Positions 20,316 through 64,000 of a stretch of DNA of 64,000 bases are shown piece after piece; position 1 is the stretch's first letter; each line of letters starts with the position of its first letter. Source of the stretch: an uncultured delta proteobacterium (lineage in GTDB: Bacteria; Myxococcota; Myxococcia; Myxococcales; Myxococcaceae); NCBI GenBank assembly GCA_963771175.1, contig CAVYSY010000011.1:128001-192000 (forward strand), written 5' to 3'. Both the position numbers and the translations under genes were made by a program. The notes beneath the pieces are model-generated. The model was not told where the DNA came from. It saw only the letters and a list, made by a program, of their open reading frames with translations, and ran no database searches.

Positions 20316-21693
20316 ATTCCTTGCAGACCCCGCGAGGCTCGCCGCGCTGGGGGCGTTCCTCTCGGTGCTGGTGGCGGCGCTCGCGCGGGGCCGCGTCCAC
20401 CCGGATGAGGTCTTCCAGTTCCTGGAGCCGGCTCACGGGCTGGCCTTCGGCTACCGCGTGGTCGCCTGGGAGTGGGTGGAGGGCCTGCGCAATTGGGCGG
20501 TGCCCGGAGTGCTCGGGGGGCTGCTCGTGCTGTGCCGGGCCATCGGGCTCGAGCACCCGTGGGCGATGGCCGCGCTCGTGTGGTGCGTCTGCGCCGGAGT
20601 GCAGGCCGCGGGGACGCTGCTGCTGTTCCGGCTCGTGGAGGAGCGGGACGGTCGCGAGGCGGCGCTCCTGGCCGCGGGGGTCCACGCCACCTGGGGCGGG
20701 TTCCTCATCTATGCCGCGAGGCCACTCGGAGATGTGCTGAGCGTGGTGCCCCTGCTGGGCGCGCTGCTGTGGGCCCAGCGTGCTCGCGACCGGGGCGGGC
20801 TCTGGGATGGGCTGTGGAGTGGCGTGCTGCTGGGGCTGGCGTTCGTCATCCGCTATCCCTCGGCGGTCTTCGGCGTGCCCCTCGCCGTGAGCCTGCTGGG
20901 GGCCCGGCGCTGGCGCTCGCTCGCGGGCCTCGCGGTGGGGACGGGCGCGGTGCTGCTGGGGCTCGGGGTGCTCGACTGGCTCACCTGGGGAACGCCCTGG
21001 TTCTCCGGCTGGCGCTACTTCGACTTCAACATCGCCAGCGGCTCCTCGGCGTCTCAGTTCGGCCGGCAGCCGTGGTGGTGGTACGCGCCCATCTTCGCCG
21101 GCATGGCGCCCCTGCTGCTCGTCTGGCACTTCCTGCGAGGGCTGGCCCGGAGAGACCTGCTCGTGGGGGCCTTCGTCTTCTACCTCGGGGTGGTGAGCGC
21201 GCTCGGGCACAAGGAGGCGCGCTTCCTGGTGCCACTGCTGCCCCTCTTCGTCGCCCTCGCGGCCGGCCCCGCCGCGTACGACCTCTCCCGTCTGTCCGGC
21301 AGGAGCGGGGTGCCGAGACTCCTGGTGGGCCTGTACGTGCTCTCCTCCGTGGCGGCGGCCACCGTGCTGTTTCCGCTCGGGCTGCGCCAGGGCGTGATCG
21401 ATGCCACCGTCTCCGCGGGCAGGGACGCTTCACTCACCGGGTTCATCATCGCCGGCCCGCCCGAGTGGAACACCGGCGGTCGCTTCTACCTGCACCGGGA
21501 CGTGCCGCTGTTCGTGAGCGCCGGACGCCCCGAGGAGGAATTGCGCGAGCGGCTCGCGGATGCGCGATTCTCCCATGCGCTCGTGGATGGCAAGGCGGTG
21601 GACGAGGACGCTCTGCGCTCGGCCGGGTTCTGCCTCCAGCGGCGCTGGGGCTCGGTGGCGCTCTGGAAGCGCTGTCCGGCCCCGAGCCCCTAA
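20302..21693 (+). CDS. GT-C mannosyltransferase, Alg9/PIG-B-like
   Basis: Multi-TM; HPDEVFQFLEPAH..FGY..AWEW..GLR and HKEARFLVPLLP resemble PIG-B/Gpi10 motifs. Confidence 0.75.
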   Translation: MLRSRFLADPARLAALGAFLSVLVAALARGRVHPDEVFQFLEPAHGLAFGYRVVAWEWVEGLRNWAVPGVLGGLLVLCRAIGLEHPWAMAALVWCVCAGVQAAGTLLLFRLVEERDGREAALLAAGVHATWGGFLIYAARPLGDVLSVVPLLGALLWAQRARDRGGLWDGLWSGVLLGLAFVIRYPSAVFGVPLAVSLLGARRWRSLAGLAVGTGAVLLGLGVLDWLTWGTPWFSGWRYFDFNIASGSSASQFGRQPWWWYAPIFAGMAPLLLVWHFLRGLARRDLLVGAFVFYLGVVSALGHKEARFLVPLLPLFVALAAGPAAYDLSRLSGRSGVPRLLVGLYVLSSVAAATVLFPLGLRQGVIDATVSAGRDASLTGFIIAGPPEWNTGGRFYLHRDVPLFVSAGRPEEELRERLADARFSHALVDGKAVDEDALRSAGFCLQRRWGSVALWKRCPAPSP

Positions 21694-23504
21694 CCGTTGA
21701 TCTGATACTTCCGGGCGATCTCCGTCACCTCGCGGGTGACGGCCTGGAGCGTCTCGGTGGCCTGGAGCGTGGTGTCCAGCCGCTTCAGCGTCTCGTCCAT
21801 TCCGGACGAGATGTGGGCGATGGCGTTGAAGATGTGCGAGATGCCCGCGTTCTGCTGGTTCACCGCGGAGGCGATCTGCCGCACGGCCGCGGCGTTCTCC
21901 TGGATGATGAGCGACATCTCGCGCAGGTTGTTGCCCGAGGACTTCACCATCTCCAGGCCTCCCTCGACCTGTTTGGCTCCCTCCTCGCTCATGGAGACCA
22001 CGTCCCGGATGGCGGTGCCGATGTCCAGCAGGCTCTTGCGGATGAGGGCGTTCTCCCGGATGGTCTGGTCGGCCAGCTTGCGAATCTCACTGGCGACCAC
22101 GGCGAAGCCCGCGCCCTGGTCTCCGGCGCGCGCGGCCTCGATGGAGGCATTGAGCGCCAGCAGGTGGGACTGGTCGGCCAGGTCCTTCACCGTGACGGCG
22201 ATGCTGGCGATCTTCGTGGCGCTCTCCTGCAGCCGCAGCACCTTGCCGCGGATGCCGTTCACGAACTCGCGGATGGTGTTCAGCCCGGAGAGGGTCTGTT
22301 CGATGGCCTCTTCGCCGTAATGGCCGAGCTTCTCGGCGTGGCCGGCCACGCTCAGCACGCTCTCGGCCTTGTGGGACGCCAGCTCGGAGGTGGTGCGGAT
22401 CTCCTCAGAGGTGAGGTGGGCCTCCTGGAGCATGGCGGCCTGCTCGGTGAGGCTCTGGCGCTGCTGGTTGCTCGCGGAGCCGAGCGCCGTGCCCGCGGAG
22501 AGCAGCAGCCGGGAGGAGGCATGCAGGCGGGTGGGAATCTCCTGGAGCCGCTCCAGGACCGTGACCATGCCCGCGGCGAGGTCCCCAATCTCGTCGGTGG
22601 AGGCCCAGCGGGGAGGGAAGGGGGTGCCGTTGGCCAGCGCCTCGATGGCCTCCTGGAGCGCCGCCGTGGCCCGCACCTGTCGGCGTGCCAGCATCCAGGC
22701 GGAGATCGAGGGGACGAGGAGGATGAAGGCCCCCAGCGCCAACAAGGGGGGTCCCAGCGTCGAGAGCAGGGTGTCGCTGAAGCCCTGGAGCTTCGCGGTG
22801 AGCAGCTCGGCCTGGGCGGGGGTGAGGGTCGGGTCCGTGAGGATGGCCTTCACCTGCGAGTCGCGCACGTCGAGCGTCTGGATGAAGATGACCAGCCCCG
22901 TGAGCAGCAGGGTGCTCGCCAGGGAGGCGCCGAACGCGTAGGGCAGGTACCAGCGCTGCCTGGGCCAGAAGACTCCGTGGCCGCTGGCGCGCACGCGCAG
23001 GCGGTTGCGCTCCTCGAGCACGTAGGGCATCAGCAACTGCTCGAGCTTGATGCCCACGGGGATGGACAGCACCAGCCCGAAGGTGGCGGCGACGAGGAGA
23101 CCGAATCCCGCCATCAGGGGGTTCTTGTCGAACCAGAGCACCTGGGGGATGGCGAGGAGGACTCCGCCCGCGAGGGAGGTGACCTGGGTTCCCATGAAGG
23201 CGAGCTTCCAGGGCAGCATCTGCAGGCGGATGAGGCGCTCTCGTGGGGGCTCGTTGGGAACGGCGCGGAAGCCGCGTCGGAGCATCGTGGACAGGCCCAT
23301 CCAGGGCAGGAGGACGCCCGCCACCACGAAAGCGGGAGGCACCAGGAGGAGGAGGGGCCCGATGATGTCCTGTGCCGACAACCCGAGCGACAACCCGAGG
23401 AGGTAGGCCGCGATGGGCGTGGAGGGGGCGATCCACGACATCACGGTGAGGAGGGTCCGTCGGAGGAGCTGAGAGGGGACGGTCTGCGGGGGGGAGCCGT
23501 TCAT
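21690..23504 (-). CDS. Orphan methyl-accepting chemotaxis protein with about 6 TM helices
   Basis: DEIGDL HAMP; LADQSHLLALNASIEAARAGDQGAGFAVVASEIRKLA signalling tip. Confidence 0.92.
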   Translation of the reverse strand: MNGSPPQTVPSQLLRRTLLTVMSWIAPSTPIAAYLLGLSLGLSAQDIIGPLLLLVPPAFVVAGVLLPWMGLSTMLRRGFRAVPNEPPRERLIRLQMLPWKLAFMGTQVTSLAGGVLLAIPQVLWFDKNPLMAGFGLLVAATFGLVLSIPVGIKLEQLLMPYVLEERNRLRVRASGHGVFWPRQRWYLPYAFGASLASTLLLTGLVIFIQTLDVRDSQVKAILTDPTLTPAQAELLTAKLQGFSDTLLSTLGPPLLALGAFILLVPSISAWMLARRQVRATAALQEAIEALANGTPFPPRWASTDEIGDLAAGMVTVLERLQEIPTRLHASSRLLLSAGTALGSASNQQRQSLTEQAAMLQEAHLTSEEIRTTSELASHKAESVLSVAGHAEKLGHYGEEAIEQTLSGLNTIREFVNGIRGKVLRLQESATKIASIAVTVKDLADQSHLLALNASIEAARAGDQGAGFAVVASEIRKLADQTIRENALIRKSLLDIGTAIRDVVSMSEEGAKQVEGGLEMVKSSGNNLREMSLIIQENAAAVRQIASAVNQQNAGISHIFNAIAHISSGMDETLKRLDTTLQATETLQAVTREVTEIARKYQING

Positions 23505-23638
23505 GAGGCGTGGCCATTCTCCCAGAGGGAGGGGTGGCGGGGGGAACCACGGGGGGGGACAAGCGCGGCGCCTGCCTGGGTACTCGTCTGGCGAACAGAT
23601 GGTAGCGCGGCTCGGCCTCGAAGTGTGGGGCGCGAGCG

Positions 23639-24403
23639 CTAGGGAGGCACCGTTCCCAGCAGCTCCCGGAAGAGAACCTCCGCCACGTCCCGGAAGAGCT
23701 CCCCCGAGGCCAGGAGCCCACCGCAGTGGTGCGGCTCCCTCGCCAGTGTGAGTGCCACGCACTTTCCGAGTACCTCGTCCCAGAAGGATTCCGAGTCGGG
23801 TGGGAGGAGGTACTCCCGGATGATGTTTCGGGGCCAGGGCAGCACCGTCGTCGGATCCGCGTCGCTCAGGCTGGTGAAACAGTCCAGGTCCACGTCCAGC
23901 AGCACCCGCTCGGCCGCCTCCAGCACCTCGCGCACCGCGTCACCGGGCGCGGGCGAGCGGAAGGCCACCGCCGCCCGGTCCACCGTGGGCACCACCACCA
24001 GCCGGTGCGAGCGTCCCCGCGTGTCCACGTACACGTCCCCCGCGAACGTGCCCCGGGGCCGCCCCCGGGCGAGCACCAGCGCATCTCCCACGAGCCCCGC
24101 CTCCATCGCCGCCAGCACGTGGTCGTAGTTGCGCACGTCCAGCGCCCACCGCGCGTGCTCGTCCAGGGCCCTCAGCCCCGCCGAGCGGTCCGGCACCGCC
24201 TCGGGCGCCGCCGGCACCACCAGGTCCAGGTGCCGGTCCAGCGTCACCAGCAGCGCCGCCGGCCCGTCCTCCAGCGCGCAGGCCCATGCGGGCAGCGCCA
24301 GCCGGTGCGGGTCGAACACGTACGCGTCCGTGGGGCCCCGACCGCCGCCGAGCGACAGCCGGATGACGCCCGCGAGGCGGAGATGTCTCTGCGAATCATC
24401 CAT
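23639..24403 (-). CDS. UPF0489-like protein (arginase/deacetylase-like metal motifs)
   Basis: FDPHRLALPAW, LDRHLDL, LLDVDLDCF, TLAREPHHCGG. Confidence 0.65.
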   Translation of the reverse strand: MDDSQRHLRLAGVIRLSLGGGRGPTDAYVFDPHRLALPAWACALEDGPAALLVTLDRHLDLVVPAAPEAVPDRSAGLRALDEHARWALDVRNYDHVLAAMEAGLVGDALVLARGRPRGTFAGDVYVDTRGRSHRLVVVPTVDRAAVAFRSPAPGDAVREVLEAAERVLLDVDLDCFTSLSDADPTTVLPWPRNIIREYLLPPDSESFWDEVLGKCVALTLAREPHHCGGLLASGELFRDVAEVLFRELLGTVPP

Positions 24404-53065: not shown

Positions 53066-53950
53066 CTACCCGTACGACTCCCGCTTGATGCGCTTGTCCT
53101 CGATGCCGAGGTCATGGAGATGGCCGAGCACCGTCTCCATGAAGCGCGGCGTGGCCGGCGTGCGCGTCTCCAGCGCCTTGCGCCGGTCCCACGGGGTGAT
53201 GGCCGGGCCGCACACGTAGACGAGGCACTTCTCCCGGTCCGGGATGAGCTCCGCCAGCAGGGCCTCGCTGACGCGGCCCTTGCGCACGCTCGGGCCGAAG
53301 TGGGACTCGTCCGTCTCGCGGGTGAGGGTGTGCACCACGCGCAGCTTGTCCGGGTGCGCGCGCTCGAGCGCCTCGAAGGCCTCCCGGTAGAGGATGTCGC
53401 CCCACGTCTTGTTGGAGAAGAGGACGGTGTGGCGCGGCTTGAGTCCCCGGTGCAGGGCGTCCTTGACGATGGCGAAGTTGGGCACCGCGCCCGAGCCGGC
53501 GACGACGTGGACGAGGTGGTCCGTGCGCTCCTCCACGTCGTCCGGGAGGACGTAGGGCCCCATGAAGCCGAGCACCTTGATGCGCGCGCCGGTGAGCCGG
53601 CCGTGGACGAGGTAGGGCGAGAGCAGGGGCGGGTACTTCGTGAAGCCGGGGATGTAGTCCTCGTCCTTCACGGTGATGGACACCAGCGGCTCGTGTGGCG
53701 CGGAGGCCATCGAGTAGGAGCGCGCGGGCTCCTTGCGCGCCTTGTGCTCCTGGAGGTAGGCGGAGAGCCGGCCGAGCGCGGGGAACTGGTGCGGGTCGAT
53801 GTTGATGAACTGGCCGGCGCGGTACTCGGGGCGCTCGGGGCCGAAGTCCAGGTAGAGGGTGGCGGTGTCGTGCGTCTCCAGGCGCACGTCGGCCACCGTC
53901 ACCTCGTACTCCTTGGGGCGGTTCCGGGCGGTCGTCACGGTTGCGCTCAT
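53066..53950 (-). CDS. FAD/NAD(P)-binding oxidoreductase (ferredoxin reductase-like)
   Basis: YRAGQF, RSYSMASAP, VAGSGAVPN, VYVCGP, IKRESYG. Confidence 0.88.
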   Translation of the reverse strand: MSATVTTARNRPKEYEVTVADVRLETHDTATLYLDFGPERPEYRAGQFINIDPHQFPALGRLSAYLQEHKARKEPARSYSMASAPHEPLVSITVKDEDYIPGFTKYPPLLSPYLVHGRLTGARIKVLGFMGPYVLPDDVEERTDHLVHVVAGSGAVPNFAIVKDALHRGLKPRHTVLFSNKTWGDILYREAFEALERAHPDKLRVVHTLTRETDESHFGPSVRKGRVSEALLAELIPDREKCLVYVCGPAITPWDRRKALETRTPATPRFMETVLGHLHDLGIEDKRIKRESYG

Positions 53951-54021
53951 GGCGTCCTTCGTACCAGCCCGGTGGACGTTCTTTCGAGGAAAGCGTTGCG
54001 GCCGGGCGTCGGGCGCGGACA

Positions 54022-55186
54022 ATGCCGTTTCAGGTGACGACCGTCCAACAGAGGGATCAGGTGTTCGTCTCGGCGCTGCCGGGACTGGAGCCGGCCGTGG
54101 AGGCCGAGGCCGAGGCGTTGGGCTTCTCGCCCCGGAGGGTGGAGGGCGGGGTGGAGCTCACCGGCGAGCCGGGGCTGCACCAGGAGGCCAACCTGCGCCT
54201 GCGCACGGCGAGCCGGGTGCTGCTGCGGCTGGGGCGCTTCGCCGCGCCGGACGCCGGGGCCCTGGCGAAGGGCCTGGCCGGGCTTCCCCTGGGCAAGGTG
54301 TGGGACGGGAAGTCGGCGCCGAGGCTCTCGGTGGCCCTGCACGGCGCGCGTATCAAGGGGCAGGACGCGGTGCTGTCCGCCGCCGCGCGAGCCTGGGGAC
54401 TGCCCTCGGTGGAGCGCGCGGGGCCGCTGGACGAGGAGTCCTCCGAGGGCCTCACCCTGCTGGTGCGCCTGGAGGGCGACACGTGCACGGTGAGCGCGGA
54501 CACCAGTGGTGAGCCGCTGCACCGGCGCGGGTATCGGCAGGAGGTGAGCCGGGCGCCGCTGCGCGAGACGCTCGCCGCGGGCATCCTGGTGCTGGCCGGG
54601 TATGACGGGGTGGAGCCGCTGGTGGACCCGATGTGTGGCTCGGGCACCTTCCTCATCGAGGGCGCGTGGATGTCCCAGCGGCGGCGCGCCGGGCCTGGCG
54701 CGCTCGTTCGCCTTCGAGCGCTTTCCCGGCTTCGACGCGGCGGGCTGGGCGGCGCGGAAGGCAAGGGCGGAGGCGGAGTCCCTGCCGGCCCCGCGCGCGG
54801 TGTTGAGGGGCCACGACATCAACGCGGGCTCGCTGGGCACGGCGAGGCGCAACGCGCGGCGGGCGGGGGTGTCGCTCACGCTGGAGCGCCAGGACGTGCG
54901 CACGCTGGCGCTCCCGGCGGGACTCGGGCCTGGGCTGGTGGTGGTGAACCCGCCCTACGGCAAGCGGGTGGGGGAGGCGGAGGACCTGCCGGGGCTGTAC
55001 CGGGCGATGGGGGCCACGTTCCGGCGAGCCTTCGCCGGCTGGCGCGCGGCACTGCTCGTCCCGGAGGACACGGGGTTGATTCGCGCGCTGGGACTGCCCG
55101 AGGGGAGGAGTCTGCCGGTGCGCAACGGCGGCCTGCGCTGCCGCCTGCTGTTGTGCTCGCTGCCCTCGTCCCAGTCCCGCGTGTGA
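54022..55186 (+). CDS. THUMP-domain RNA methyltransferase (RlmL-like); frameshift near 54685
   Basis: NLRLRTASRVL, DTSGEPLHRRGYR, APLRETLAA, DPMCGSGT, VNPPYGKR. Confidence 0.88.
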
Positions 55187-55231: not shown

Positions 55232-56794
55232 CTACCGACCCACGGCGAGCCGCGAGGGCTTCGCCGAGGTGCCGTCCATGGCGAGCGCCCGCGCGACCAT
55301 GACCTGGGCGGCGAGCACGGTGGAGCGCACCACATGGAGGGGCCGGTAGAGGCCCTTGGCGATCCACAGCTTGGGGTGGATGTCGGAGGGCTCGCTCCCG
55401 TCGTAGGGCGCGAGGTAGGCGGTGCCCTTGGCGAGGATGCCGGCGTCGACGCTCAGGCCGGCGAGCCGCGCGGCGGCCAGGGCATGGAGGGCATAGGCGG
55501 TCTCCTCGGGCGAGCTGCGGCCGAACCAGCCCCAACCGCCGTCGGTGCGCTGGTTGGCCTGGAGCCACTGCACGGAGGGCACCACGCAGGAGGCATCCCA
55601 GCGCAGCAGCGCCCGCGTCGCGCGGCTGGTGACGTAGTACACCGAGGCGTGCCACTTGTCCGTCCAGAAGCCATCCTGGCGGCGCTGGCTCAGCAGGAAG
55701 CGGGCGGACTTGTCCACCGAGTCCTGGCCGCCGGGGTACGGCCGGCCTTGGATGGCGTCCAGCACGTGGGCGTTCGCACTCACCGAGGCGCCGCGCTCCA
55801 CGAGGAAGCCGACGAAGCCGTCTGGCCGCTCATACTGCGCCAGCAGCTTCCAGTTCACCTCGTAGCCGTGGTCGTGCAGCAACCCGGAGGACACGGAGGT
55901 GTCATCCGAATCGCCGTAGGCGACCTCCGAGGACCACGCCAGCCCGAAGGCCTGGGTGTGCGAGCGGATGGCCTCCAGGTGTGGCTTCAGCTCCGGCTGG
56001 AGCTCGGGGCTCATCCCCGCCATGTGCAGGTGGTAGGCGATCCACAGCCGCTGCCACAGCTCGGTTCCCGTTCCGAAGGGGATGCTGCGGGGCCCGCGGC
56101 GGTCCACCAGTTCCCGCAGGCCGCGGAGCGCGCGCTCATCGCCGCTCTTCTGCACGAAGTGGGCGGTGGTCGCCACGCTCGCGCCCACGAGCCCGTTGGC
56201 CGTCTGCAGCTTGCGAGCCTGCTCCACGTCCAGCTTGTCGCGCAGGAACTCGAGCGAGAAGCCCAGGCTGAGATGGGGCGCGTACAGCATCTGGGGCGGC
56301 ACCCGCGACATCTTCTCCTTGTGCAGGGCCTCGGCCGCGGCGCTCAATGCGTGGAGGTTGCTGAAGCCCCGCTCGCATACCTCCGCGAGCAGCGGGGCGG
56401 CCACCAGCTCGAAGCCGATGGTGAGATCCGGCTCATCCTTGAGCCGCGGCCAGCTCTTGAGGACGAAGGCCGCGGCGCGATCCGCCCGCGCGCGCGCTTC
56501 CGGCCCGTTGTCGAACTCGATCACCGCCAGCATGGAGGAGAGCGTGGCCAGCAGCCGCGCGGAGACGTAGTCCACCTCCGGCGCCCAGCCACCATCCTCG
56601 GCCTGGGTGGTGCGCACCACCTCCAGCACCTCGGGGAAGGCCGGCTCTCGGGTGCCCGGCTTCGCCACGCGAGCCAGGAAGCCCGCGTCGTACTCCGAGT
56701 GCCCCACGTCGGCCATGTCGGGCTGGTCGAGCAGGGCGCGGGCGCGCTCCAGGAGCTGAGCCTTCGAAGGCAGGTGCGGGTCGATATCGGGCAT
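55232..56794 (-). CDS. Class II (protonation-initiated) diterpene cyclase, beta-gamma fold
   Basis: SEYDAGFLA (YDTAW-like), QAEDGGW, IGFEL, DSDDTS (DxDD), SVSANAHVL, WTDKWHASVYY.T, QRTDGGWG, EETAYAL, LWIAKGLYRP. Confidence 0.9.
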   Translation of the reverse strand: MPDIDPHLPSKAQLLERARALLDQPDMADVGHSEYDAGFLARVAKPGTREPAFPEVLEVVRTTQAEDGGWAPEVDYVSARLLATLSSMLAVIEFDNGPEARARADRAAAFVLKSWPRLKDEPDLTIGFELVAAPLLAEVCERGFSNLHALSAAAEALHKEKMSRVPPQMLYAPHLSLGFSLEFLRDKLDVEQARKLQTANGLVGASVATTAHFVQKSGDERALRGLRELVDRRGPRSIPFGTGTELWQRLWIAYHLHMAGMSPELQPELKPHLEAIRSHTQAFGLAWSSEVAYGDSDDTSVSSGLLHDHGYEVNWKLLAQYERPDGFVGFLVERGASVSANAHVLDAIQGRPYPGGQDSVDKSARFLLSQRRQDGFWTDKWHASVYYVTSRATRALLRWDASCVVPSVQWLQANQRTDGGWGWFGRSSPEETAYALHALAAARLAGLSVDAGILAKGTAYLAPYDGSEPSDIHPKLWIAKGLYRPLHVVRSTVLAAQVMVARALAMDGTSAKPSRLAVGR

Positions 56795-56970
56795 GGTCGG
56801 GATTCCTGTCTGGACCTCTCAGGGAGGAGGAGGTCTTGGCGGGAGGAAGTATCGCCGCTCGTCCACGGGAGGAAAAGACGTCCCGAGGTGGCGGGGCGGC
56901 CTCCTCACGGCGGGTAGAGGAGACTCATGACGCGTGGTGCGCGCGAGGGGCCGTGTTGGTGGCGGCGCCC

Positions 56971-58392
56971 TCAAGCGCTCTTGGCGGTGGCGTGGGGCGT
57001 GCGCCTGCGCACCCGGAGCCACACGCCGTTGCGAGGCCGGGTCGCCCCGGCGACGGTCGCCTCCATGGGGCGGCCGGGCACGGGCTCGAGCTCGAAGCGC
57101 GACAGCAGCCGCGTCAGGACGAGCTGCCCCTCCATGAGCGCGAAGTCCCTGCCGATGCACAGCCGCTGGCCATTTCCGAAGGGAATCCAGGCCAGCGGGT
57201 GCCTCCCGGCCGAGCGCTCCGGAGTGAACCGCCACGGATCGAACTGGTCGGGCTGCTCCCAGAATTCGGGGTGCCGATGGATGACGTAGGTCATGACGCC
57301 GATCATCGAGCCAGCGGGGATGCGGTAACCGTCGATGACGTCATCCTCGACCGCCGTGCGCGGCACCCAGTAGGTGGGCGGGTACATGCGCAGGCCCTCC
57401 TGCAGCACCATGAGCACCTTCTGCAAGCGGGGCAGGTGCATGAGGGTGGGAGTGCTCTGTCCGAGCACCTGGTCGCATTCGTCCCGCACCATCTGGGCGA
57501 GGTCCTGCCGCTCGGCCAGGCTGCCGCAGGTGAAGGCCAGGGCGGTGGACGTGGTCTCGTAACCCGCCAGCAGCAGCGAGATGGCCTCGTCGCGGAGTTG
57601 GTGGTCCGTCATGCGGCCGCCCTCGTCATCCACCGCGTCGATCAACATCCCCAGCAGATCGCCTTCGGAGTTGGAGCCCTTCTCCCGGCGCCGGGCGATC
57701 AGCTCGAAGATGATCTGGTCGATGTTGCGCATGGCCTGCTCGAAGCGGCTGCGCCCCGGGGCGGGCATCCACTGGGGCAGCTTGCTGGTGAAGAGGCTGG
57801 AGAGCACATGCTGGACGACGTAGTCGAACTCCCGGCTCACCTGGGTGGCGGCTTCGGGCGAGATGTCGGCGCCGAACAGCGTCTTGACCACCACGTTCAT
57901 GGTGAGGCGGGCGAACTCGTGGAAGCTGTCGAACGGCTCACCCGATTCCGCGGCCCGGTCCCAGCTCTCCAGGCTCTCGTCGATGGCCTTGAGCATGACG
58001 TCGAACAGGGTGGTGATGCGCTCCCGGTGGAAGTGCGGTTGGATCATGCGCCGTTGCCGCAGCCAGAAGTCGCCCTCGCTGGTGGGCAGCCCGTTGCCGA
58101 CGATGCTTCGGATGGCGCCCCAGATGGGGCCACCCTTGATGTAGCGGCGGGGATGGTCACGCAGCACGTGCTGGGCATGGCGCGGGTGGTTGAGCGCGAT
58201 GCAGCGGGTGATGCCCAGGTCGAGCGTGTAGATGTCCCCGTGTCGGGCTCTGGCGGAGAGGACATAGCCCAGGGCATCCCGCGCGAGGCCCGGCAGTGCT
58301 CCCACCAGGGGGAGTCCCGCACGGGGCGGCAGGGGCAGCGTCGAGTCGCTGGAGGAAGGCGCGGGGGGAGCGGGGGGATCGCGATCTGGCAT
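56971..58392 (-). CDS. Cytochrome P450
   Basis: LAGYETT I-helix, EGLR (ExxR), FDPWRF, PFGNGQRLCIG heme motif. Confidence 0.96.
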   Translation of the reverse strand: MPDRDPPAPPAPSSSDSTLPLPPRAGLPLVGALPGLARDALGYVLSARARHGDIYTLDLGITRCIALNHPRHAQHVLRDHPRRYIKGGPIWGAIRSIVGNGLPTSEGDFWLRQRRMIQPHFHRERITTLFDVMLKAIDESLESWDRAAESGEPFDSFHEFARLTMNVVVKTLFGADISPEAATQVSREFDYVVQHVLSSLFTSKLPQWMPAPGRSRFEQAMRNIDQIIFELIARRREKGSNSEGDLLGMLIDAVDDEGGRMTDHQLRDEAISLLLAGYETTSTALAFTCGSLAERQDLAQMVRDECDQVLGQSTPTLMHLPRLQKVLMVLQEGLRMYPPTYWVPRTAVEDDVIDGYRIPAGSMIGVMTYVIHRHPEFWEQPDQFDPWRFTPERSAGRHPLAWIPFGNGQRLCIGRDFALMEGQLVLTRLLSRFELEPVPGRPMEATVAGATRPRNGVWLRVRRRTPHATAKSA

Positions 58393-58507
58393 GTCTACTT
58401 CCGTTGCAAGAATCCAGCTTTCCCAGCATGCACCATCTGCCGGGCCTTGCGTAGTGCGTCGAGCCGGGCGCATGGCCAGGGTGGGTAAATGCCCCTAGTA
58501 TTCCGCC

Positions 58508-59455
58508 ATGTCCAATCCCTCAGTGCCCTCGGAGCCCTCCGACCCCACGGAGGCGGTAGTCCACTTCATCGAGACGAACGCCGTCACGTTCGAGCGAGGT
58601 GAGCCGCGGAAGTACTTCGCCAGGTTCACCAAGATGAATGGGGGGCTCACTCTGCCCATCGTGGACCCGGAGCACCTGACCAAGGTCATCCGGCTCAAGA
58701 ATTTCTACGCCCTCTGGAATTTCCTGGTGGACGATGAGATGGACCGGGATGGGCGCTCCACCGGACTCGACGACAGCATGATGATGCTGATGCATTACTC
58801 GCGGGGGGCACCTCTTTCGTCCCAGGTCTCCGTCGCTGCGCGGCTGCTCGAGAAGATCCTGCGGGAGGTGAAGGCGCTCTCCACCGCGAATGACCCGACC
58901 AAGGCCCGCCTGCGCGAGATGTTCTACTTCGACCTGTGGGCGCTGATGACCGGGTTCAAGCACGAGGCCTGTATCAACGACATGAAGGAGGCGGCCAACC
59001 CGATGGAGTACATCAAGTACACCACCCTGGTCGGCTCCATCGAGCACCTGCTCGACCTGGACTGCCTCTTCGCCACCAGCACGCTGCCGCCCCCCGTCTA
59101 CAACCGCCTGCGGGTGGCCTACGATCATCTCGGACGGGCGCTCAAGTTCTCCTCGGACGTCGGGTCGCTGAAGCGGGAACTGATGGAGGAGGACAACCTC
59201 AACCTCATCCGGATCCTGGCCGGCGGCGAGAACATCACCGGCCTCGAGAAGAAGCTGTCGGAGGCGGAGTTCGAGGCCCTTCGCTCCGACCTCGAGCCCA
59301 TCGTGAAGAAGGTGCGCGACATGGCCCGGGAGCACCTGGAGAAGGCGAGCAGTCTGCTGTCCGGCCTCTCGGGGGTGGATACCGGGCGGCTGCTGGGGAC
59401 GGTCTCCTCCATCGTCCAGGAGTACTTCAAGGGCGACGTGTTCTTCCAGAAGTAA
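58508..59455 (+). CDS. Divergent class I terpene synthase-like protein
   Basis: All-helical 315 aa; LVDDEMD (DDxxD) and SDVGSLKRE..E..NL (NSE/DTE-like) at typical spacing; context of class II cyclase and P450s. Confidence 0.72.
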   Translation: MSNPSVPSEPSDPTEAVVHFIETNAVTFERGEPRKYFARFTKMNGGLTLPIVDPEHLTKVIRLKNFYALWNFLVDDEMDRDGRSTGLDDSMMMLMHYSRGAPLSSQVSVAARLLEKILREVKALSTANDPTKARLREMFYFDLWALMTGFKHEACINDMKEAANPMEYIKYTTLVGSIEHLLDLDCLFATSTLPPPVYNRLRVAYDHLGRALKFSSDVGSLKRELMEEDNLNLIRILAGGENITGLEKKLSEAEFEALRSDLEPIVKKVRDMAREHLEKASSLLSGLSGVDTGRLLGTVSSIVQEYFKGDVFFQK

Positions 59456-59466
59456 GCGGTGCTCGC

Positions 59467-59493
59467 GGGAAGGCGGGGGGAGCCCGCCTTCCC
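59467..59493. terminator. Perfect 11-bp stem-loop between convergent terpene synthase and mcp
   Basis: GGGAAGGCGGG-gggag-CCCGCCTTCCC. Confidence 0.6.
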
Positions 59494-59506
59494 ACAGCCG
59501 CGGTGA

Positions 59507-61352
59507 CTACTCCGGCCTGTTGTTGGCCGGTGTGCCGGGCTGCTCGGCCGGCGCGGAGCCGTCCTGCATCCAGCCGTACTGGCCGACGAAGCCAGTCACC
59601 TGCTGGGCCACGTTGCGGACCACGGAGATGGCCTCCTCCGAGGCACGCAGCTGGGTCATCGTCTGATCCATGATGCGCGTCATGTCGGTGACGGCCTGGG
59701 TGATCTGCACGATGCCCGCGTCCTGCTGGGTCACCGCGGCGGCGATCTGCCGCACCGAGTTGGCGTTGTCGCGCACGATGGCCGAGAGCTGCTGCACCTG
59801 TTGGCTGAAGCTCTGGATCTGCACCAGGCTGCTCTCGACGCGCTTGGTGCCCTTCTCCGTGAGCGTGGCCGCGCTGGCGATGGCGGTGCCGATGCCCTGG
59901 AGGATGGAGCGGATGTTGTGAGTGGCGCGGATGGACTGATCCGCCAGTGAGCGGATCTCCTTGGCCACCACGCCGAAACCCTTGCCGCTCTCGCCGGAGC
60001 GCACCGCCTCGATGGCGGCGTTGAGCGCGAGCATGTTCGACTGGTCGGCCAGGTCCTTCACGATGGCCGTGATGCGGGCGACCTGCCGGGCCTGCTCATC
60101 CAGGGACTTGATGCTGGTGGCGATCTCACGCACCTGCGCGCCGATATCCGACAGGCCCGCCATGCCCTCCTGGATGGCCGCCTCGCCGGAATGGCTGATG
60201 TCCTGGGCCTTCTCGGCCTGCTTGAGGATGTTGTTGGCCGTCTTCGCGGCGAGCTGCGAGGTCTGGGTGATCTCCTCGGTGGTGACCTGGGTCTCCTGCA
60301 GCGCGGTGGCCTGGACCGACAGCACCTCCGTCTGCTTCGTCGTCGACAGCCCGAGCTGCTGGGCCGAGTCCTGCAGCGAGAGGGCGGAAGCGCGCAGCGA
60401 CATGGAGAAGGAGCGCAGCTGCTCGAAGACGCGGGCGGTGGCGGCCGACAGGTCGCCGATCTCATCGGTGGAGATCCAGTTGGGCAGCCGGGGCTGACCG
60501 CTGGCCAGGCCCACCAGGGCGTCCTGGATGCTCATCGCGCCCTCCTGCTGCCGACGGGCGAGCACCCACGCCGTCGTGCCGGCGATGGCCAGGAGGTAGC
60601 CACCCAGGATGACGAGGGGGATCATCGAGTCCCGGGCCAGCTTGGTGAGCATCTGCTGGATGAGCGCCTGCACCTCGGCGGTGCTGACGGCGGCGCTCTT
60701 GGCCAGCAGCTCATGGTAGGTGTCGTAGCCCTGCCGGCCGATGATGGTGAGCGTCATCGCCAGGGTGCAGGCCACGAAGAGCGCGAGCGTGTAGGGCAGG
60801 AACCACGACTGGCGGGGCCACAGGAAACCCCTGCCCTTGGGCGTCAAGGTCCCCGCGAGGATGGAACTGCTTGACCGCGTAGGGGCTGAGGATCCGCTCC
60901 ATCTGGTACTGCTCCACCACCATCAGCAGCGCCAGGTGCAGTCCCGTGGCGACCAGCGCCCATAGGATGAGCAGCGGATCCCGGCCGAACAGCACGACCG
61001 AGCCACCGACGAGGAAGCTCACGCCCGGCACGAACGTGGCGAAGATGGCGATCACGATGGTGCCGGGAACCTTGAGGATGCTCTCGAGCTGGACATCAGG
61101 TGGCGTGCTCGCCGGCACATCGAAGGCGCGCTGCACGGCCCGGCGCGTGACCAGGTAGGGGATGAGGATCGTCAGCACCGTGCTGGAGATGGGCGCCAGG
61201 TAGCCGAAGATGGTGATGGCCTCCTTGCGGTTGAGGCCCATGATGACCGCCAGCAGGTACAGCATGGCTGGGGAGCCGATGACATTAGAGACCTGCCGGG
61301 CATTCCACAGCTTCTTGAAGACCTTGGTGGCTTCTGGCGAGAGAGAACTCAT
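59507..61352 (-). CDS. Methyl-accepting chemotaxis protein with about 6 TM helices; one frameshift near 60850
   Basis: ORF 60711..61376 (4 TM) joins ORF 59507..60847 (WPRQSWFLPY, DEIGDL, LADQSNMLALNAAIEAVRSGESGKGFGVVAKEIRSLA). Confidence 0.9.
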
Positions 61353-61771
61353 GTGTATTCGCTGGGGTACTCCCAAAGAGGCTTGACGGCCAGCTTACAC
61401 GCCATGGGCGCGATCTCCAAGGTTCGGAGTCAAGCGGATTTCCCGGGACTCATGCACCTCAGGAGCGCAGGCAGGCTGGCTGGCGCGGGACCTGACGGGC
61501 GGCTCGAACCGCGCCAGGTGCACTCCCAGTCCGTGCTGCCCCCTACCTCCGAGGGGGGTGCCCTCCGTTGTGCTCCCTACCCGCGGCACGAGCTGACGCC
61601 ATTTTAAAAATCTTCAATAGGGATGTGCGGGGAAGTGTCTTGTACTGAACGGATACGCGATTTTCGAAGGGAGAAGTGCTCGACACCTCACGATGATGGC
61701 TAGGCTCTCGCCCCCACCCGCATCCATCTCAATGACAGTCACATTCTGTCGCATCCACCGAAGGGGGAACC

Positions 61772-63007
61772 GTGGGGAGCGCAGCCCGGCAGCTCGTCAT
61801 CAATCCAGTCAGTCCCGAGAACCTTCTCGATCCAGTCCCGCTCTACGAGGAGATGCGCAAGAACGCCCCGGTCTTCTGGTCTGACCTGGTGCAGGCCTGG
61901 TTCATCACGCGTAACGAGGACGTGATGAACTGCTTCCGCGACAGCCGGCTGAGCGCCAACCGGACGAGGTTCTACGAGGCGCAGCTCCGAGGCATGGACG
62001 TGGAGGTCATCCGGGAGCTGATGCAGAGCCTCAGCCACCAGGTGGGCATGAAGGACGGCGCGGAGCACCAGCGCCTGCGCCGGCAGGTCAACCCGGGCTT
62101 CACACCACAGATGCTCGACTCCTGGCGGCCCGCCATCCGCCGCATCATGGAGATGTTGGTGGACCGGGTCGAGCCCATGGGCCGCATGGACCTGTTCCTG
62201 GATATCGCGCACCAGTTGCCTGTGCTCGTCATCGCGGAGATCCTGGGCATCCCCGCAGAGGATCGCGAGCGCTTCCAGGCGTGGGTGCAGCCGATCGCCG
62301 AATTCACGAGCCCCTCCCTGGGGGTGGACGTGGCGGCGCTGGCCCGCCGGGCCACCGCGTCCATGAAGGAGTTCAATGCCTACCTGCTCGGGGTCATCCA
62401 GGAGCGCCGCCGCACCCCCGGTGACGACGTGCTCAGCCGGATGATCCACAATCAGGAGGGGGGTGGGATGTCCGAGGATGAGCTGGTGGCCAACGTCAAC
62501 CTCATCCTCTCGGCCGGGCATGTCACGACCACCGACCTGCTCAGCAACACCGTCCATGATCTGCTGGCGCACCCCGACCAGTACCAGAAGCTCCGGGAGG
62601 ACCGCGGTCTGCTGGCCTCGGCGGTGGAAGAGGCCATCCGCTTCACCCCATCGATGCCTTTCATCCACCGGATCGCCGTGGAGGACGTCCAGCTCCATGG
62701 CAAGACCATCCGCAAGGGCGACGTCGTCTTCCTCGGCCTGTCGTCCGCCAATCGCGATCCGGAGGCTTTCCCGGACCCGGATACCTTCGATATCACCCGC
62801 AGTCCATCCCCGCAGAAGAACATGGCCTTCGCCTTCGGGCCGCACTACTGCCTGGGCTCGGGGCTGGCCCGCCGCGAAGTGGAGATAGCCCTCGACGTGC
62901 TCCTCGAGCGTCTGCCCGGCCTGCGCCTGGACGAGCGGATCCCGCCGCGCGTCAAGTGCCACACCTTGCTCTTCCGGGGCTTTGATTCGCTGCCCGTGCG
63001 TTGGTAG
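61772..63007 (+). CDS. Cytochrome P450
   Basis: HQRLRR, SAGHVTT I-helix, EEAIR, ANRDP, AFAFGPHYCLG heme motif. Confidence 0.96.
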   Translation: MGSAARQLVINPVSPENLLDPVPLYEEMRKNAPVFWSDLVQAWFITRNEDVMNCFRDSRLSANRTRFYEAQLRGMDVEVIRELMQSLSHQVGMKDGAEHQRLRRQVNPGFTPQMLDSWRPAIRRIMEMLVDRVEPMGRMDLFLDIAHQLPVLVIAEILGIPAEDRERFQAWVQPIAEFTSPSLGVDVAALARRATASMKEFNAYLLGVIQERRRTPGDDVLSRMIHNQEGGGMSEDELVANVNLILSAGHVTTTDLLSNTVHDLLAHPDQYQKLREDRGLLASAVEEAIRFTPSMPFIHRIAVEDVQLHGKTIRKGDVVFLGLSSANRDPEAFPDPDTFDITRSPSPQKNMAFAFGPHYCLGSGLARREVEIALDVLLERLPGLRLDERIPPRVKCHTLLFRGFDSLPVRW

Positions 63008-63138
63008 GGACCTGGCGGTCGCCCCGGACCCTGCTTCATCGTCGGCCAACCCCCCTGCTTCGTCCGTGCTCGACAAGCAGGTGGGGTGGCACTAGCGTCG
63101 GGGCCGTGCAAGATCCGGCCAATGAAACGTCTACCGGG

Positions 63139-64000
63139 GTGACGGGCTCCACCCAGAGCCAGCGCTTCAACTTGGTCTCCCCTGAGAACCTGCTCAATCC
63201 CATTCCCGTCTACAAGCATCTGCGGGAGAACGACCCGGTTCATTGGTCCGACGTACTGCAAAGCTGGTTCATCACCCGTCACGACGACGTGGTGAACGGC
63301 TTTCGTGACCCGCGCCTGAGCGCCGACCGCAGCCAGTTCCTGGAGCATCAGGTGCGGCTGCTGGGACTGACCCCTGAGATCATCGGGAACATCATCGAGA
63401 GCCTCCGCCGACAGATGGTGAACGCGGATGGTGCGGCACACCTGCGCCTGCGCCGACTGGCCAGCCCGGGCTTCACTCCCCAGCTGCTCGACACCTGGCG
63501 CCCGGCCATCCGCACCACCATGAACATGCTGATGGAGCGGGTGCAGGGGCGGGAGCGCATGGACCTGGTGAAGGAGCTGTCCTACCAGCTGCCACCGCTC
63601 ATCATCTGCGAGCTGCTCGGCGTGCCCGCCGAGGATCGCGAGCGCTTCCAGGAGTGGGGGCGAACCATCGTCCAGTTCAACAGCCCCACGGTGGGCGTGG
63701 ACCTGGTGGATCTGGCCCACCGGGCCAACGAGGCCATGGGGGAACTCACCCGATATCTGACGACGGTCATCGAGAAGCGCCGCCACTCCCCGGGCCAGGA
63801 TGCACTCAGCTTGATGATCCAATCCCAGGCGGAGGGGGGGTTGTCCGAGGAGGAGGTGCTGGCCAACGCGGTGCTCCTGCTGTCGGCTGGGCACCTCACC
63901 ACCACCGATCTGCTCAGCAATGGCGTGCACGATCTGCTGTCGAACCCTGAGCAGTTCCAGAAGCTGCGCGAGGATCCCGCCCTGATCAAGTCGGCCGTGG
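63139..64000 (+). CDS. Cytochrome P450, tandem paralog of 61772..63007, truncated by window edge
   Basis: Absent from ORF track because no stop in window. From GTG 63139: VSPENLLNPIPVYKHLRENDPVHWSDVLQSWFITRHDDV..HLRLRR..SAGHLTTTDLL. Confidence 0.92.
   Translation, partial: MTGSTQSQRFNLVSPENLLNPIPVYKHLRENDPVHWSDVLQSWFITRHDDVVNGFRDPRLSADRSQFLEHQVRLLGLTPEIIGNIIESLRRQMVNADGAAHLRLRRLASPGFTPQLLDTWRPAIRTTMNMLMERVQGRERMDLVKELSYQLPPLIICELLGVPAEDRERFQEWGRTIVQFNSPTVGVDLVDLAHRANEAMGELTRYLTTVIEKRRHSPGQDALSLMIQSQAEGGLSEEEVLANAVLLLSAGHLTTTDLLSNGVHDLLSNPEQFQKLREDPALIKSAV

Follow-up and report, generated by a model that had tools for sequence, protein, structure and literature searches.

A conserved myxobacterial cassette of terpene cyclases, cytochromes P450 and a membrane chemoreceptor, predicted to make an oxidised diterpenoid

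The 64,000-nucleotide stretch of DNA analysed here (the window) belongs to the 9.8-Mb genome, 81.7% complete, of an uncultured myxobacterium (G000, contig C11, positions 128001-192000), and its 3' end carries six genes (Table 1): a class II terpene cyclase, a class I terpene synthase, three cytochromes P450 (P450s a, b and c) and a methyl-accepting chemoreceptor (MCP). The cluster is real and conserved, and its sequences make it probable that the six genes form a single cassette that would produce an oxidised bicyclic diterpenoid, the receptor being functionally tied to it in some way. An initial annotation of the sequence had named the cyclase, the class I gene and the three P450s, and each of them is found by Pfam searches and motifs where it had placed them; the divergent gap between the ATG of P450 a and the class I gene is, as it had stated, exactly 115 bp. 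The same annotation had left an empty stretch of 2.3 kb before two further P450s: these two P450s are indeed there on the plus strand, but the stretch is occupied by the receptor gene.

Table 1. Genes of the cassette, in window coordinates
Gene	Position	Strand	Features
Class II (beta-gamma) terpene cyclase, 520 aa	55232..56794	-	Rv3377c-like clade
Cytochrome P450 a	56971..58392	-	PF00067 E 6e-84; AGYETT, heme Cys intact
Class I terpene synthase	58508..59455	+	PF19086 34.6 bits; D75DEMD, S216DVGSLKRE
Methyl-accepting chemoreceptor (MCP)	59507..61352	-	PF00015 E 3e-32; one-base frame break near 60859
Cytochrome P450 b	61772..63007	+	I-helix AGHVTT
Cytochrome P450 c	63139..64000, continues to window-equivalent 64380	+	AGHLTT; 62% identical to b

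Among solved structures, the class II enzyme is closest to 6VPT (Rv3377c; E 1.3e-48 over residues 31-500, the best of 17 matches), and its further relatives are plant and bacterial diterpene cyclases (3S9V, 3PYA, 5BP8, 7XKX). The DxDD general acid (D295SDD, with D297) and the activating histidine (H343) are in place, and the alignment to 6VPT recovers the beta-gamma didomain and the residues that bind diphosphate and metal (DLTIGFE, K380); the other residues considered here are W381, F179, F330, A479 and Y483. Relatives of this cyclase (E <=1e-15, four candidates being scored per genome) occur in 15 of the 301 genomes of the order, namely, in G000, in all 8 of its congeners and in all 6 genomes of genus g15. 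In a quick tree of 22 class II cyclases, the window enzyme and those of genomes G267 and G182 and of locus L054 make up one clade, apart from 17 others. The two records of the enzyme clade that have names belong to Myxococcales, and it is by such relatives that the DNA is recognised as myxobacterial. The orthologues of G267 (L006:68-2257) and G182 (L035:10533-12839) carry, near the C-terminus, a charged insert of ~190-200 residues that the window enzyme is without, and the class II enzymes of genome G288 have inserts as well, along with short repeats.

As to the product of this enzyme, the residues typical of a gibberellin-type ent-copalyl diphosphate synthase are missing (F179 stands at the F171 position, where there is no His, and PFG takes the place of the PNV motif), the Asp of actinobacterial copalyl diphosphate synthases (PtmT2 D502/Tpn2 G485 position) is replaced by A479, and F179, A479 and Y483 correspond to F171, A475 and Y479 of the Rv3377c (halimane) family. 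Since there is neither a His-Asn pair nor a copalyl-type Asp, and since the three Rv3377c residues are kept, a rearranged halimane or clerodane diphosphate appears more likely than plain copalyl diphosphate. The halimane-favouring Y328 is replaced by F330, with F likewise in G267, G182 and L054; according to the accessible text of the two papers, the Y328F variant of Rv3377c makes labda-8,13-dienyl diphosphate alongside its native product (PMC9585517/PMC9814783), and F330 would partly point back to such a labdadiene. By the showing of the same papers, as far as their text was available, the residue rules for class II products are imperfect (PMC9814783, PMC9585517). A halimane is, then, the tentative first choice, a labdadiene is a rather less likely product, a clerodane seems unlikely, and some other skeleton more unlikely still.

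The class I gene passes the PF19086 cut-off of 23.7 bits only weakly; its metal motifs are DDEMD and a variant second motif, SDVGSLKRE, kept across the family. The single protein (P0002) had no significant match either among solved structures or in NCBIfam. The family to which it belongs is small and divergent (58 representatives in a library of representatives), and an alignment of 45 of these with P0002 and its G267 orthologue displays DDxxD, the second motif SDxGxxxRE and the invariant residues R30, K64 and D185. The profile built for the family does reach solved structures: of the 17 matches listed at E up to 1, the best is Stt4548 (E 1.3e-8), and Sat1646 is the fifth (E 8e-4). Both of these enzymes act on copalyl diphosphate and have a sensor Arg on helix H, as described in the available part of PMC9814573; K213 (Lys213) aligns with this Arg and is invariant in the 16 closest family members, and a check for the pyrophosphate sensor found no Arg on helix G. 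In a Foldseek search with the predicted model (predicted local distance difference test score, pLDDT, 95; predicted template-modelling score, pTM, 0.92), all listed matches were terpene synthases (TM by query 0.51-0.68, identity 12-20%). By Pfam, family profile and predicted fold, the gene encodes a terpene synthase of the predicted all-helical type. Close relatives of this gene are found in 3 of the 301 genomes. Two family members are natural fusions, P0020 with a P450 and P0033 with a polyprenyl synthase, and offer single-gene test cases.

Neither the cassette nor the DNA between it and the chimeric join described below encodes a synthase of geranylgeranyl diphosphate (GGPP). The annotation had proposed that one might lie beyond position 64000, which is ruled out for contig C11, where a kinase gene and a PilZ gene are followed by DNA of low guanine-cytosine content (GC); its other proposal, that GGPP comes from elsewhere, for instance from carotenoid metabolism, is plausible, as G000 has 7 PF00348 matches, one of them beside carotenoid genes on contig C16. 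The missing synthase would also suit a drimane-type sesquiterpenoid made from farnesyl diphosphate (FPP), or a product of another chain length, in place of a labdane-related diterpenoid. Bacterial drimane pathways are known (PMC11035983, in its available part), at loci L040 and L150 a class II cyclase is accompanied by a HAD phosphatase, and sesquiterpene synthases are among the top fold matches of the class I enzyme. Still, we consider an origin from FPP quite improbable, because the solved structures nearest to the class II enzyme (the five named above) are diterpene cyclases whose active-site residues are kept here, and because the profile of the class I family best matches an enzyme of copalyl diphosphate.

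The gene for P450 a adjoins the cyclase in three congeners, with counterparts in G267 (69%), G182 (59%) and G288 (56%). P450s b and c retain the heme Cys and ExxR. They belong to a subfamily present in 18 of the 301 genomes, and each of the 13 distinct sequences of >=52% identity has V, L or T where the usual acid of the I-helix would stand. One copy of the P450 b type adjoins the receptor in G182, G267 and G288, the single copy of G182 occupying the place of P450 c. For P450s b and c, a part in the pathway is less certain than for P450 a. That terpene loci alone would harbour the P450 b subfamily was considered and rejected, as most other copies stand alone. Elsewhere in G000 (C54:41601-47844, locus L168), a P450 b paralogue is found ~3 kb from a pair of methyltransferase and class I terpene synthase genes, a set whose composition is suggestive of a methylated terpene pathway.

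The cassette has the same gene order in G267, whereas in G288 the same five gene types are rearranged; in G182 it sits at the same chromosomal site, but there a gene of 331 aa fills the class I slot. The class I and class II genes are conserved together in G267, in G288 and at loci L053 and L054, not in G182; L053 and L054, the two distant Myxococcales loci at which class I adjoins class II (2 of 2), were found with an alignment (A2), and a locus scan with P0002 alone gave none. In G288 the receptor and the class I gene are sisters of those in the window, and the class II cyclase comes from another clade. Thus, these genes do occur together in relatives, which was one of the points on which the initial annotation had staked the existence of a pathway, and its logic of class II enzyme, class I enzyme and P450s is borne out by motifs, fold and the co-occurrence in G267, G288, L053 and L054. 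The 331-aa gene of G182 (L035:14411-15406) matches nothing in Pfam or NCBIfam; no support was found for regarding it as a degenerate class I family member, and its product is a candidate non-canonical terpene enzyme.

The receptor has 5-6 hydrophobic helices, as judged from the hydropathy of intact orthologues, which G182 and G267 possess, together with a HAMP-like stretch and an MCP signalling domain. Its membrane sensor has no name in Pfam or NCBIfam, and an Atlas search with the sensor gave only leads (an unnamed cluster at 0.91; HAMP/adenylate cyclase and MASE10 clusters at <=0.87). The family occurs in 112 of the 301 genomes. With at most 8 candidates scored per genome, each listed genome of g1 and g15, the genera with class II cyclases, has 5-8 copies, and the listed genomes of other genera have 1-3; full scoring of five genomes outside g1 and g15 gave 1-2 copies. 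Across the family, the sensor domains share only ~20-60% identity, in contrast to conserved signalling domains. The window holds a second member of this receptor family (21690-23762) at a non-biosynthetic site near 2-oxoglutarate dehydrogenase genes, and further ones in G000 are located beside a class I synthase (C33:571768-574882), beside a UbiA gene (C58:60602-63411) and beside an apparent cluster of type III polyketide synthase (PKS) and UbiA genes (C3:64199-74396). Two receptors of ~1,180 aa (L108:5113-8682 and L124:4866-8393) have two tandem membrane sensor domains.

A receptor is encoded within a few kb of 17 of the 25 class II loci (24 from the class II survey and one found via the class I gene), which belong to this genus and one related genus. 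In five complete genomes, 10 of the 31 receptors lie <=6 kb from a terpene cyclase, as compared to 0.19 expected by position; the 31 were obtained from 37 matches after removal of 3 with HAMP only and merging of 3 as repeats within tandem-sensor genes, and the cyclase set, PF19086 or class II hits, came from searches independent of the receptor. Counted from the enzyme side, 10 of 30 terpene synthase loci have a receptor. The other 21 receptors include one each beside a Pyr4-like cyclase, a weak class I-like gene, a UbiA gene with a P450, and a P450; two more are tandem-sensor genes at sites that are unclear. In a quick tree of 43 receptors, the subclades track the type of locus, and all 17 receptors adjacent to class II genes fall in a clade of 21 (Shimodaira-Hasegawa-like approximate likelihood-ratio test, SH-aLRT, 91), the neighbours of the remaining members being a Pyr4-like cyclase (1), UbiA genes (2) and a P450 only (1). 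Among 20 further receptor loci, chosen by hand, 7 (from g1, g15 and g19) adjoin class I, class II or UbiA genes and 5 do not; the other 8, the best-scoring receptors at a common housekeeping site in genera g3, g5 and g10, have no terpene gene beside them. By eye, the link between receptor and enzyme recurs in >10 flanking-gene contexts, with class II, class I, Pyr4-like and UbiA enzymes, and it is in this variety of sites and enzyme types that the weight of the association lies.

Several observations weigh against a cassette with a dedicated receptor and a settled product. The genomes being close kin, the counts given above are not independent, and no P value is attached to them. Receptors are absent from 8 of the 25 class II loci, from 20 of the 30 terpene synthase loci, and from L053 (a 7-kb contig) and L054; conversely, 5 of the 31 receptors are found at a PKS/monooxygenase site, 5 at a type III PKS site and 5 at a non-biosynthetic site. 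The P450 b subfamily adjoins the receptor in only 6 of the 21 copies in eight complete genomes, and 14 other P450 b loci have no evident terpene gene in their open reading frame listings, which involved no family scan. The class I slot of G182 holds an unrelated gene. Many sesquiterpene synthases are among the fold matches of the class I enzyme, and its substrate is not fixed by these matches. The explanation of the receptor frame break (see below) depends on a single contig of depth 4.2. As for the receptor-less class II loci, the 6 of the 8 that are in the cyclase tree all belong to one clade, in which G297 and G275 do have a receptor, and the remaining 2 have the same neighbours as the other six.

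In the light of these exceptions, it could be argued that the receptor and the downstream P450s only happen to lie here, as bystanders in a hot spot of accessory genes, with the pathway reduced to the class II enzyme, P450 a and the class I enzyme: copies of the P450 b subfamily commonly stand alone, and cyclase loci without a receptor exist. This seems very unlikely, inasmuch as G288 has retained the receptor and P450 b together with the class I gene despite rearrangement and the swap of the class II clade, and the link recurs in the many flanking-gene contexts, and with the four kinds of enzymes, described above.

A second possibility is that the cassette makes a diterpenoid for antibiosis, predation or defence and the receptor senses an outside cue, regulating the cassette or the behaviour of the cell in a Che3-like manner. 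In Myxococcus xanthus, gene expression is controlled by the Che3 pathway, whose receptors Mcp3A/B are six-helix proteins (PMC3945109, in its available part); the receptor and P450 b are divergently transcribed, with ~420 bp between them, and the receptor family is found at polyketide loci, too. However, a single cue would have no obvious need for a separately diverged receptor at each locus, and the sensors, ~20-60% identical in contrast to the conserved signalling domains, form subclades that track locus type, so that sensing of an outside cue appears unlikely.

The preferred reading, a six-gene cassette for an oxidised bicyclic diterpenoid with a functionally linked receptor, can be envisaged as four steps. 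First, the class II enzyme would protonate GGPP, supplied from elsewhere in the genome, via D297 and convert it into a bicyclic diphosphate, probably a rearranged one. Second, the class I enzyme would take off the diphosphate, with an olefin, an alcohol or an additional ring as the outcome. Third, P450 a would oxidise the hydrocarbon, and P450s b and c may take as substrate an intermediate that already carries oxygen. In the fourth and least supported step, the lipophilic product would bind to the membrane domain of the receptor and, through it, feed into a Che pathway governing motility or development. Since related receptors repeatedly adjoin terpene enzymes in relatives, the lipid sensed would likely be the cell's own, and the arrangement expected of an autoinducer pair, a multi-helix membrane sensor encoded beside biosynthetic genes, is found here; by this analogy, sensing of the product by the cassette's own receptor is conceivable but falls short of an even chance. 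More broadly, and more tentatively, terpene cyclase, P450s and a dedicated intramembrane chemoreceptor might constitute a repeated module that lets every strain produce and perceive a terpenoid of its own, the window locus being the labdane-related member with a class I family that is uncharacterised. If so, this would be a hormone-like or kin-specific signalling system connected to Che pathways, and exchange of cyclases among loci would alter the signal. Most bacterial terpenoids have yet to be given a natural role, and most myxobacterial orphan chemoreceptors a ligand; at these loci, a candidate ligand pathway is paired with a candidate receptor, and therefore both can be tested. Even if the signalling idea fails, a new compound or type of enzyme is likely, because the class I family has no close characterised member among solved structures.

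Three further genes found beside receptors deserve mention. Two unannotated genes that stand beside receptors and P450s, L120:8124-9437 (437 aa) and L116:5343-6845 (500 aa), are candidates for new biosynthetic enzymes, and L064:9757-11304 (515 aa), in which a cNMP-binding domain is joined to a domain that weakly resembles class I terpene synthases, is convergent with the most divergent receptor of the family.

On its 5' side, the cassette is flanked by genes for a NAD-binding oxidoreductase and an RlmL-type methyltransferase (53066-55186), both kept in G182, of which the former is a possible candidate for the redox partner. Upstream of the receptor start (~61385-61425), a short stretch, AGCTTACA followed by CCAA, is conserved in G000, G182 and G267 and may be a promoter or an operator; a scan of promoters and terminators did no better than chance. 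Downstream of P450 c there follow a PAS-GAF histidine kinase gene and the PilZ gene, after which, from ~194,730 on contig C11 (L001:14734-20000 and L002; ~2.7 kb past the window), the GC drops from ~68% to ~27%. The ~27% GC part is probably DNA of another organism, apparently a low-GC anaerobe, attached by a chimeric join, and no piece bridging this join was among those listed; contigs C51 and C52 have low-GC stretches at their starts, too. Within the cassette, contigs of run X1, from a near-identical strain, span the stretches from P450 a to the class I gene, from the class I gene to the receptor, and from P450 b through P450 c to the kinase; this is a check of the assembly and not an independent occurrence, because X1 may be the source sample. 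One X1 contig, of depth 4.2, has one base fewer at 60859, the site of the receptor frame break, and the flanking methyltransferase gene, which has a frame break near 54685, shows a surplus base of the same sort; both breaks are probably insertions made in assembly.

The annotation had made the novelty of the cluster depend on the lack of a characterised counterpart, and no match to a characterised cluster emerged from the open literature or from solved structures. Neither this cluster, nor a myxobacterial class II diterpene pathway, nor a pairing of chemoreceptor and terpene cyclase was found reported in the open literature searched, subscription journals and supplements being outside this scope; relatives may be included in the PMC12009305 enzyme lists and the PMC9814783 network, both in supplements. 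The part of PMC11469919 that was available mentions no myxobacteria under the terms tried.

Several known systems share parts of this design. The halimadienyl diphosphate synthase Rv3377c (MtHPS) is a class II enzyme of the same beta-gamma type, in which F171, H341, W380, A475 and Y479 equal F179, H343, W381, A479 and Y483 of the window enzyme, as far as can be taken from the available text (PMC9585517, PMC9814783), and its DATVGFE is matched by DLTIGFE; however, it has DxDT where the window enzyme has DxDD, and Y328 where the latter has F330. Also, Rv3377c is partnered by an Rv3378c-type enzyme, as opposed to the class I synthase, P450s and receptor found here, although clusters of the Rv3377c family are described as containing a type I synthase in 33% of cases (PMC9814783, in its available part). 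The terp1/sat cluster of Salinispora and the stt cluster of Streptomyces, which encode Sat1646 and Stt4548, follow the same logic of class II enzyme, class I enzyme and P450s. The sensor residue of their class I enzymes is an Arg on helix H, at the position of which the window enzyme has a Lys, and Ser replaces Asn here in the second metal motif; their class II enzyme is from a different clade, and the accessible descriptions of these clusters mention no receptor. The terpentecin cluster (Tpn2/Tpn3 and two P450s) and the kolavelool cluster of Herpetosiphon are described, in the text available, as clerodane-making pairs of class II and class I enzymes with a non-basic residue at the Tpn2 G485 position, as is the case here. 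The terpentecin-type match is weaker (7XKX, E 4.8e-25), and the tpn cluster has its own GGPP synthase and ferredoxin, neither of which is seen in the cassette.

That myxobacteria make diterpenes is evident from TiqS (tetraisoquinene; PMC12009305, in its available part), a class I enzyme that, unlike the cassette, acts without a class II partner; a class I enzyme is what PMC12009305 terms the first myxobacterial diterpene synthase. Cystodienoic acid is another myxobacterial diterpenoid, to which PMC5331508 assigns no genes and which the available part of PMC8401837 also names without genes. On the receptor side, McpD and McpL of M. xanthus have the same lengths as family copies of 599 and 591 aa in another genus, each listed with 5 helices, a likeness of length and architecture only; in its available text, PMC3945109 places orphans of this type with Che4-6, names no ligand for McpD or McpL, and is inconsistent as to whether the mcpL mutant has a motility defect. 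The closest parallel to the proposed signalling is provided by CqsA/CqsS and LqsA/LqsS, where CqsS and LqsS are described as six-helix membrane sensors of lipophilic autoinducers that are possibly bound within the helices (PMC4821796, in its available part). Combination of a self-made lipophilic signal with a multi-helix sensor would be common to these systems and the cassette, as an analogy and not a homology, and the output differs, being an MCP signalling domain here and a histidine kinase in CqsS/LqsS. The enzymology of the cassette is of a known kind, its class I family is uncharacterised, and the link between terpene enzymes and a receptor recurs across two genera.

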